This document shows positions 14,794 to 16,522 of a DNA stretch of 16,522 bases, piece after piece. A program made the position numbers and the translations under genes. Each line of letters starts with the position of its first letter. The stretch's first letter is position 1. A model generated the notes under the pieces. That model saw only the letters and a program-made list of their open reading frames with translations, made no database searches and was not told the origin of the DNA. This DNA comes from a virus (Duplodnaviria > Heunggongvirae > Uroviricota > Caudoviricetes). The DNA lies in IMG/VR virus record IMGVR_UViG_2548876964_000023; one strand, written 5' to 3'.

Positions 14794-16093
14794 TTACCTA
14801 CATGCATATAACCTTCTGAAATTACTATAACAATGTGTATTCCTACCACCACTACAACGCTCCTCATTATATTCTGCAATAAGGGTTCCAGATATATAAC
14901 CAAACTGAGGACTATACGTTGATCCCGGACAGGCACATGTTCCAGTATCACTATTCGGTATAACGCATTTATAACCAGAGATTTGATCTGTTATCGTTAT
15001 AAAAATACCTTTCAGGCCATCACCACTTGCTGTCTGCCATTTACCGTTAACACACGATAACACTCGACCTGTACTGTCTCGCCCCACCAGACCATTAGGC
15101 GTACATTTCGCATTTAATGTTGCCTGAACATTCAAATGGAGATATTCACCTGCTTTGATCCTGCCTGTTGATTCAATTGTCCCGTTAGATATTATCGTGC
15201 CTGCGGTAAGATTACCTGAAGCATAAATATTACCTGCATTGTTCATGTAAACTTTAACTGTTTTCCCGGTTCCTACACCAACAGTCCCTGACGCATACAA
15301 ATCATAGGTGCGAACACCGCCAGCCCAGCCAGCAGGCAAATCGTTTGGATTAAGTCCGTTCGTCGCGATACGACTACCAAACTTCGCCAGACCTGTTGTT
15401 GATAGCGTATTAAGATAGGTATCAGATTTTACTTTCAGGTTGTTGTTGATATTTACAGGACCATTAAGGGTTGAGGTTCCTCCCACAGTCAGAGCTGATG
15501 TAACAGACGCATTACCCGTTGTCTTAAGTGCGCCGGTTGTTGTTGTCCCTGATGCCGTAATGTCTTTGATGTTTTTGATACTCTTCCCACCAAGATTCAG
15601 ATCATCCGTCATCGGCAACGTTCCATCACGGCGCAGATAAACAGAATACATTGAAGAGTTATACCCCACGCGGTAAGCCAGCAATCCACCACCCGTGATA
15701 TTGCTGTAGCTATTAGAGTTCTCACTCCACTGACCACCATAGCCGGACGCTATCTTGGTGTTTCTGCTCATCCCACCATCAACACCAGCCGCCTGAACCG
15801 CTTTACCTAACAGGTCATAACGAATACGACCACCTTCTTCCCACGGGCTGGCGGTTGTTATAAGACCATTGATGACATAATCAGGTGCTGTTCCTGAACG
15901 CTTTAACACAATCTTGTAGGATGCTTTTTGCGCGTTAGTTCCTGTATAGCCGACAGGCAACAGACCTTCATTAATTAACGTCTGGTAAGTGATTTCACAA
16001 CCAGCAGCCGAACATGTTCTTGGCCCCGGATCGCTACTTTGATTGTTGGATGATGACAGTGTGGAAATTTTGTCATAGCGAATACTGATATAG
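14794..16093 (-). pseudogene. Gly/Thr/Asn/Ser-rich beta-type adhesin, pilus-tip (PilV-like) or tail-fibre-like protein, 5'-truncated by an IS insertion
   Basis: Long open frame (433 native codons); its first roughly 26 codons (16094-16170) are IS-derived read-through. Repetitive G/T/S/N-rich segments and a Cys-rich C-terminus; no native start codon. Functional class is a guess from composition. Confidence 0.5.
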
Positions 16094-16522
16094 TGAACCG
16101 CCCCGGGTTTCCTGGAGAGTGTTTTATCTGTGAACTCAGGCTGCCAGATCATCGTTTCCGATGGAAGCATAATAAGCTTTTTCTGCTTCTGCCGGAGGAG
16201 TATGGCCCAGCCTTCCCAGCAATCGTCGATTGTTATACCAGTCCACCCACGTTAGTGTGGCCAGTTCCACTTCTGCACGGTTTTTCCAGCTCTTACGGTG
16301 TATTACCTCCGCTTTGTAAAGACCATTGATGCTCTCAGCCATCGCGTTGTCATACGAGTCGCCTGTACTCCCTGTTGATGCCAGTAATCCGGCTTCTTTT
16401 AGTCGCTCCGTATAGGCCAGTGACACATACTGAGAGCCTTTATCGCTGTGATGGATGGTGCCAGACGGACGACGGGCCCACAACGCCTGCTCCAGCCGCA
16501 TCCAGCACGAATGTCGTTTCCA
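16094..16522 (-). mobile_element. IS3-family insertion sequence (IS629/IS1203-like end), partial; terminal repeat begins TGAACCGCCCCGGG at 16094 and the element runs off the window
   Basis: Terminal sequence TGAACCGCCCCGGGTTTCCTGGAGA plus the transposase OrfB C-terminus encoded just inside. The specific IS name is from memory of the terminal repeat. Confidence 0.75.
16136..16522 (-). CDS. IS3-family transposase OrfB (integrase-core DDE domain), C-terminal part; the ORF continues past the window end
   Basis: ...[11 protein letters not shown]...[21 protein letters not shown]...[21 protein letters not shown]... is the typical C-terminal region of an IS3-family DDE transposase; frame is open to the window edge. 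Confidence 0.8.

Follow-up and report, generated by a model that had tools for sequence, protein, structure and literature searches.

What gene was cut off where an insertion sequence (IS) runs into it at the end of IMG/VR virus record IMGVR_UViG_2548876964_000023, how did it lose its beginning, and could what is left still work? In this stretch of 16,522 nt (the window, meaning the whole stretch at its full length), a minus-strand open reading frame (ORF) of 458 codons begins inside an IS3-family element and continues into a repetitive gene that is cut off at its 5' end. We consider it very probable that the region is a pseudogene remnant of pilV in a decayed ROD21-like island, left by an IS-associated deletion.

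Positions 2699-16522 of the window are 99.97% identical to the chromosome of Escherichia coli O111:H8 strain 05-3004 (NZ_CP077600; stretch L001), with 2 mismatches and 2 single-base gaps, and the RefSeq annotation of L001 was transferred to the window by adding 2699 to the L001 coordinate. Further comparisons were made with E. coli strains 1504D004 (L002), XH988 (L003) and E2855 (NZ_AP018796; L004). The features at the junction are as follows.

14794-16170, minus strand: chimeric ORF of 458 aa with its ATG at 16170-16168, from the ORF listing and translation.
14794-16092, minus strand: pilV remnant, codons 56-487 of a PilV-type type IVb minor pilin/tip adhesin plus the stop codon, from Shufflon_N, alignment to an intact allele and RefSeq.
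16094-16170, minus strand: IS-derived 5' extension of the ORF, out of frame with orfB, from codon-by-codon mapping.
16094-16118, no strand assigned: right inverted repeat (IRR) of IS1203, TGAACCGCCCCGGGTTTCCTGGAGA, a 25-nt inverted repeat whose outer part is TGAACCGCCCCGGG.
16094-16522, minus strand: 3' 429 bp of the IS3-family element, equal to L001 13395-13822 save for one indel; the remainder lies past the window edge.
16136-16522, minus strand: C-terminal part of OrfB with the DDE/rve domain (Pfam rve, rve_3 and rve_2), stop codon at 16136-16138.
14686-14705, minus strand: terminator-like hairpin and T-run, AAAGGGCCATGTGGCCCTTT then CTTTAATTTG, ∼90 nt past the pilV stop, by consensus match only.

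The IS contributes 25 codons and 2 nt to the ORF. The junction falls in codon 26 (CAC, 16095-16093) and the native part comprises 432 codons and the stop; base 16093 is one further native base, the last of pilV codon 55. Alignment to the intact pilV allele ends exactly at this base, one short of the IS terminus. A sequence-only reading of the window had proposed that an IS terminal repeat starts at 16094, that the OrfB C-terminus ends at 16136, that the ORF runs through the junction with its first ∼26 codons derived from the IS, and that the native gene lacks its 5' end, and all of these points were confirmed. The sequence TGAACCGCCCCGGG occurs once in the window (16094-16107) and does mark an IS terminus: in L001, 13395-13419 pairs with 14680-14704 as imperfect 25-nt repeats (88% complementary) that bound an element of 1310 bp (13395-14704) with the ends TGAACC...GGTTCA. 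No native start or prepilin sequence was found downstream of 16094 on the minus strand, where the next Met is ORF residue 134 and no signal-like sequence follows. The native part is free of internal stops and frameshifts and has the composition that the same reading described: it is rich in G (13.7%), T (11.1%), S (9.7%) and N (8.1%), repetitive, and Cys-rich at its C-terminus, where 8 of its 10 Cys lie within the last 103 residues. The hairpin beyond its stop codon sits between this gene and a converging S-4TM gene.

The identity of the gene is supported by several comparisons. Pfam Shufflon_N (PF04917) matched ORF residues 58-376 with E = 9.2e-14 and 52.1 bits, against a cut-off of 27.5, and RefSeq labels the gene in NZ_CP077600 as a pilV pseudogene, 'incomplete, missing N-terminus', beside an IS1203 family transposase. 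An NCBIfam scan of the truncated and intact PilV proteins gave no match, and the name given by RefSeq probably has a different basis; a PDB sequence search with intact PilV returned nothing at E up to 1. The intact allele of 1504D004 encodes 487 aa. The window copy is identical to it at 418 of 433 positions (97%) and starts at its residue 56, with residues 1-55 gone. The intact N-terminus, MIKKKG/FTLLEV... (MIKKKG/FTLLEVTIVLGIGTLIAF), is a type IV prepilin leader followed by a hydrophobic helix, and Pfam N_methyl scores 19.9 bits on intact alleles, slightly below its cut-off of 21.2. The 164 nt lost from the 5' end of pilV thus encoded the leader, the processed N-terminus (Phe, with Glu5) and the greater part of the hydrophobic α1 helix. 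Immediately upstream of pilV in the intact loci is a pilin gene (Pfam PilS, 1.4e-29). Together these results support assignment of the gene as the remnant of a PilV-type type IVb minor pilin or tip adhesin.

The likeness to PilV-type adhesins had been noted from the sequence alone, with a phage tail fibre as the alternative. A tail-fibre or other fibre gene would suit the Gly/Thr/Asn-rich, beta-rich repeats, a weak sub-threshold Bactofilin match suggests a beta-helix, and there is a prophage remnant upstream in the window. However, the Shufflon_N score exceeds the Pfam cut-off, and the intact alleles begin with a type IV prepilin leader and directly follow a PilS-family pilin gene. The gene itself stands within an island at an Asn tRNA gene, with mtfA and two tRNA genes between it and the prophage remnant, and all 577 matches in E. 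coli (567 of 5426 complete genomes, ∼10%) are in such chromosomal contexts, those listed being annotated pilV. We therefore give almost no credence to a fibre gene that is not a pilus protein.

The closest well-known relatives of the PilV-type gene are the thin-pilus tip adhesins of IncI1 and IncI2 plasmids (R64 type), with which it shares the Shufflon_N domain, the prepilin leader of intact alleles, a position after a PilS-family major pilin gene, and the motif G-R-x-x-x-GEYL-x-L at the end of the constant region, with 29-50% identity over ∼70-120 aa. A tblastn search of 72,556 plasmids mostly returned a stretch of 60-110 aa at 38-55% identity in IncI-type pilV genes. Direct alignment to PilV of pSL476_91 gave 29% identity over 122 aligned positions with 55 gaps, centred on the GR..(A/T)GEYL.L motif, and the pilin encoded next to the island gene shares 30% identity with IncI PilS from end to end. 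The two differ in context. The IncI gene is plasmid-borne, whereas the window family is found on the chromosome, in an island, and the IncI locus surrounds pilV with genes for an ATPase, a platform protein, a transglycosylase, a prepilin peptidase and a site-specific recombinase, whereas no pilus biogenesis genes were found in the chromosomal stretches examined (the window, L001, L002 and L003). In these stretches the PilS-type pilin is the only pilus partner that the intact islands retain, and its gene is deleted in O111. The island gene also has one fixed Cys-rich C-terminus in place of a shufflon, and the window copy is truncated besides. The single C-terminus is followed by the hairpin that ends the gene, with no alternative C-terminal segments. 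In the IncI plasmid a site-specific integrase comes after pilV, whereas no rci tyrosine recombinase was found downstream of pilV in the window, L001, L002 or L003. The sequence GTGCCAATCCGGT, which we take to be the core of the sfx repeats of the R64 shufflon, had no match anywhere in the window at up to two mismatches; this negative is weak alone, and it is strengthened because rci and alternative C-terminal segments are also absent. By these comparisons, the gene family member is best described as a fixed, non-shuffling and distant homologue of PilV.

How pilV lost its 5' end is decided on the far side of the IS. The sequence-only reading took the IS to have decapitated the gene by insertion, and the first part of this stands, since the element abuts and beheads pilV; simple insertion does not. 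In L001 the triplets outside the IS ends are TAG and GTC, with no 3-bp target-site duplication, and across the IS lies not the 5' end of pilV but a MobA/MobL (MobQ) relaxase gene without its N-terminus, the first 270 nt being missing. BLAST comparison with L002 placed the two flanks at L002 16301 and 20362, O111 being without L002 16302-17314 and 18629-20361. Against the IS-free island of XH988 the flanks fall at L003 16000 and 18393, and L003 16001-18392 is absent. Thus, a 1310-bp IS stands where ∼2.4 kb has gone: the 5' end of pilV, the gene for the PilS-type pilin, traD, the stretch preceding mobQ and the first 270 nt of mobQ itself. An oriT (origin of transfer) would be expected in the lost region upstream of mobQ. 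What remains of pilV and mobQ in O111 is 89-99% identical in DNA sequence to the genes of intact islands.

A simple insertion would have split pilV in two and left the 5' half, the promoter and a 3-bp duplication just past the other IS end. This is the default expectation for an IS3-family insertion, and a related IS3-family copy in 1504D004, between the pilin gene and traD, does have a clean TTA duplication; the window, moreover, ends inside the IS, with its own far flank unseen. Beyond 16522 the flank was read from the 99.97% identical genome, and that of the window's own strain is presumed to be the same. The 1823-bp junction region is matched at full length at ≥99.5% identity in 19 complete O111-type genomes, with the same annotation under the match. 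In L001 the other flank is mobQ minus 270 nt, the triplets differ, and no copy of the 5' end of pilV or of the pilin gene was found elsewhere, whilst in E2855 the IS abuts a truncated glycosyltransferase gene. No intermediate, with the IS at the same position in pilV and the 5' half kept, was found: the best-ranked junction matches are of O111 type only, and neither of their two arrangements retains the 5' half. A simple insertion is thus very unlikely.

The deletion could have arisen as follows. An IS1203/IS629-type element would have entered the pilV-pilin-traD-mobQ module in the E. coli O111 lineage; ∼2.4 kb would then have been lost, either by IS-adjacent deletion or by recombination between two directly oriented IS copies; and the right end of the IS, being open in the pilV frame, would have given rise to the chimeric ORF of 458 codons. 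The IS copy of 1504D004 was considered as the ancestral copy, with deletions on both sides, but with an identity of only 95.8% and a TTA duplication of its own, that copy lends this no support and probably inserted independently. Some points weigh against a pseudogene left by deletion, or limit how far it can be specified. The far flank and the missing duplication were read from near-identical O111 genomes, as the window stops inside the IS. The remnant is open over 432 codons in the same orientation as the transposase, and it may be reached by read-through transcription and translated to some extent. Lastly, the final structure is the same, and is explained equally well, whether the loss came from a one-sided deletion next to the IS or from recombination between two IS copies.

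The IS itself is of IS1203/IS629 type. The partial OrfB scored 123.9 bits against NCBIfam transpos_IS3 over profile positions 264-369 of 369, and RefSeq names the full copy in L001 'IS3-like element IS1203 family transposase', with a programmed frameshift; the frameshift and a pseudoknot are taken from that annotation. It resembles IS629/IS1203 in its length of 1310 bp, its 25-nt repeats of TG...CA form and its two-ORF DDE/rve transposase with a programmed frameshift, and it has the imperfect repeats ending 5'-TG...CA-3' and the size (1.2-1.5 kb) required of the IS3 family. It differs in that the O111 junction copy lacks the 3-bp target duplication; this is consistent with deletion or recombination after insertion and was therefore not counted against membership of the IS3 family. 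The window copy also differs by a 1-nt insertion in orfB, an extra C at ∼16496 (CTCCAGCCGCATCC versus CTCCAGCGCATCC in L001 and L004), which shifts the OrfB frame upstream of ...LEQALW and gives WKRHSCWMR in place of METTFVLDA. None of the 19 full-length junction matches is 100% identical to the window (best 99.9%), and both L001 and L004, which were aligned directly, are without the extra C. It is either a transposase frameshift or a sequencing error, and the IS copy in the window may itself be inactive owing to this insertion. The element is present in many copies in its host, with at least 35-40 matching places per O111 genome. IS629 is known both to inactivate genes and to bring about genomic deletions in enterohaemorrhagic E. 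coli (PMC9943667).

The chimeric ORF raises the question of function, in that 458 open codons, in the same orientation as the transposase and with no degenerative mutations in the pilV part, could be a functional neo-gene, expressed by read-through from the transposase promoter and translated from the ATG inside the IS. The open frame is accounted for by age. Between the remnant and the intact L002 allele dN/dS is 0.06 and dS 0.22; the divergence therefore built up under purifying selection, in a gene that still worked, and the truncation came recently. The frame is still open because of this recency, the window allele being present at ≥99% identity in 43 genomes, of which all those listed are O111 or O111-like strains. 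A product of the ORF would be without the prepilin leader and most of the α1 helix, which are needed for export and incorporation into a pilus, and its 10 Cys would require periplasmic oxidation. No sigma-70-like promoter was found on the minus strand in a scan of 14600-16522, and visual inspection for a hybrid promoter reading outward from the IRR gave only a poor candidate (TTCACT-14 nt-TATGAC). Translation would have to begin at an ATG (16170) that falls within the 3' end of orfB and is read in a different frame; on inspection, no convincing Shine-Dalgarno sequence was seen ahead of it. Neither a pilin partner nor assembly machinery was found within the window or, in the related O111 genome, within the ∼9 kb of flanking sequence examined. 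Having no recognisable promoter, prepilin signal, pilin partner or machinery, the ORF cannot make a pilus adhesin. We think that it would not function, and probably is not expressed, and we hold a functional neo-gene to be highly improbable. The O111 pilV remnant is, rather, a real but ordinary pseudogene.

Two arrangements are found at the junction among O111-type genomes, that of L001 and that of E2855. In the latter (L004 7395-8704 versus L001 13395-18410) IS1203 is inverted, 3.7 kb from the truncated mobQ to a lipoprotein gene is deleted, and the IS abuts the same junction base of a truncated GT9 gene as in L001. The pilV-side IS end in E2855 is a chimeric inverted repeat, with IRR-type outer bases and then the interior of the left (IRL) side. 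E2855 and eight more among the genomes listed (nine in all) match the window only as far as the inverted repeat. This arrangement may have come about through a second IS copy, through inversion plus deletion, or through a crossover within CCTGGAGA. Most matches to the pilV family are 90-95% identical to the window copy and include Nissle 1917 and ATCC 25922, and the pilin and pilV 5' region lost in O111 is carried by 526 genomes. The junction and the alternative O111 arrangement could serve as a lineage marker.

The island around the remnant belongs to the Enterobacteriaceae-associated ROD21-like (EARL) family of excisable, mobilisable islands (PMC6035254, PMC10763509). A type IV pilin and a pilus-related protein are among the conserved EARL genes, in 52 of 56 islands (PMC6035254), and the two have been named PilS and PilV (PMC3976249). 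The further island features in the window are as follows.

10215-10290, plus strand: tRNA-Asn, the island integration site (left end), from ARAGORN.
10470-11744, plus strand: P4-type tyrosine integrase, from Pfam Arm-DNA-bind_3, Phage_int_M and Phage_integrase and the L001 annotation.
12768-13763, plus strand: SMODS nucleotidyltransferase, from Pfam SMODS.
13767-14039, 14050-14433 and 14411-14683, plus strand: S-4TM effector in three ORFs, which match successive parts of the 291-position Pfam S_4TM profile.

Intact islands have the order tRNA-Asn, P4-like integrase, variable cargo, pilV-like gene, pilin gene, traD, mobQ and further cargo (L002, L003). The P4-like integrase and the order integrase, cargo, pilus protein, pilin, TraD, MobQ are shared with Salmonella ROD21 and Klebsiella ICEKp258.2 (PMC6035254, PMC10763509), and the integrase region of the window is 95.8% identical in DNA sequence to that of the IS-free XH988 island. 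The O111 island differs from the family in that IS1203 has taken the place of the pilin gene, of traD and of the start of both pilV and mobQ, and in its cargo, which is SMODS and a broken S-4TM gene and not the TIR, H-NS or type III restriction-modification genes of the family. RefSeq likewise shows three separate S-4TM coding sequences in L001, and the effector of this SMODS/S-4TM pair, which is like a cyclic-oligonucleotide-based antiphage signalling system (CBASS), is probably inactivated.

The right end has decayed further. In O111, all that the XH988 island has to the right of the lipoprotein gene is gone, together with the chromosomal yeeJ and part of the GT9 gene. The island remnant (L001 18324-18410) is joined directly to the truncated chromosomal GT9 (yeeL-like) gene (18411 onward), with no IS there, which implies that yeeJ and the rest of the island would have been lost in a separate deletion. 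Direct repeats (attL/attR) and an RDF gene allow EARL islands to excise; in L001, the interval from the integrase to the GT9 gene has no attR-like second copy of the final 20-30 nt of tRNA-Asn at up to three mismatches. Judged by its gene content, the O111 island appears to be a degraded EARL member, a remnant of the backbone and not a functional member. Near its right end in L001, shiA and yeeO are annotated as frameshifted.

That a partial pilV lies beside IS1203 is already recorded in NCBI annotation, and the island family is published. The locus adds to the cases in enterohaemorrhagic E. coli in which a mobile island has decayed through the action of IS629/IS1203. The O111 copy has lost the pilin genes and part of the relaxase gene, and oriT and the capacity for excision have probably gone as well; the island is therefore likely to be fixed in the chromosome. 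The locus also bears on the role of the conserved orphan PilS/PilV pair of the intact islands, for which no functional study was found in the searchable literature. The strong purifying selection on pilV (dN/dS 0.06) shows that the gene does something. One tentative idea, which we regard as rather unlikely, is that the PilS-like and PilV-like proteins form a piracy module that uses the type IVb thin-pilus apparatus of a helper IncI-like plasmid, or a cryptic type IV pilus or type II secretion system of the host. If so, the pair would tilt the formation of mating pairs, or adhesion, towards the island mobilised by MobQ, much as SGI1 is said to remodel the IncC mating apparatus.

In the slot just downstream of pilV, which is the interval from integrase to pilV in islands that have the integrase, the cargo varies from island to island. 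In O111 (window 11745-14793) the slot holds SMODS and S-4TM, in 1504D004 (L002 13407-14827) a RelA-like GTP pyrophosphokinase and a SLATT protein, and in XH988 (L003 13133-14457) ParA and a hypothetical protein; in ICEKp258.2 it is occupied by a type III restriction-modification system (PMC10763509). The slot looks like a defence or cargo hotspot of the EARL family. In 1504D004 a P2-like prophage with its own integrase (L002 1-13306) lies immediately to the left of the cargo and pilV, in place of the P4-like integrase, a position that suggests tandem or nested integration. The window has phage DNA of its own on the left: positions 1-9130 are a lambdoid prophage remnant adjoining tRNA-Ser (9134-9223), after which comes mtfA (9317-10114). 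By the annotation transferred from L001, this remnant includes a truncated exonuclease gene, a truncated integrase gene, dicB and a YdaT-family gene.

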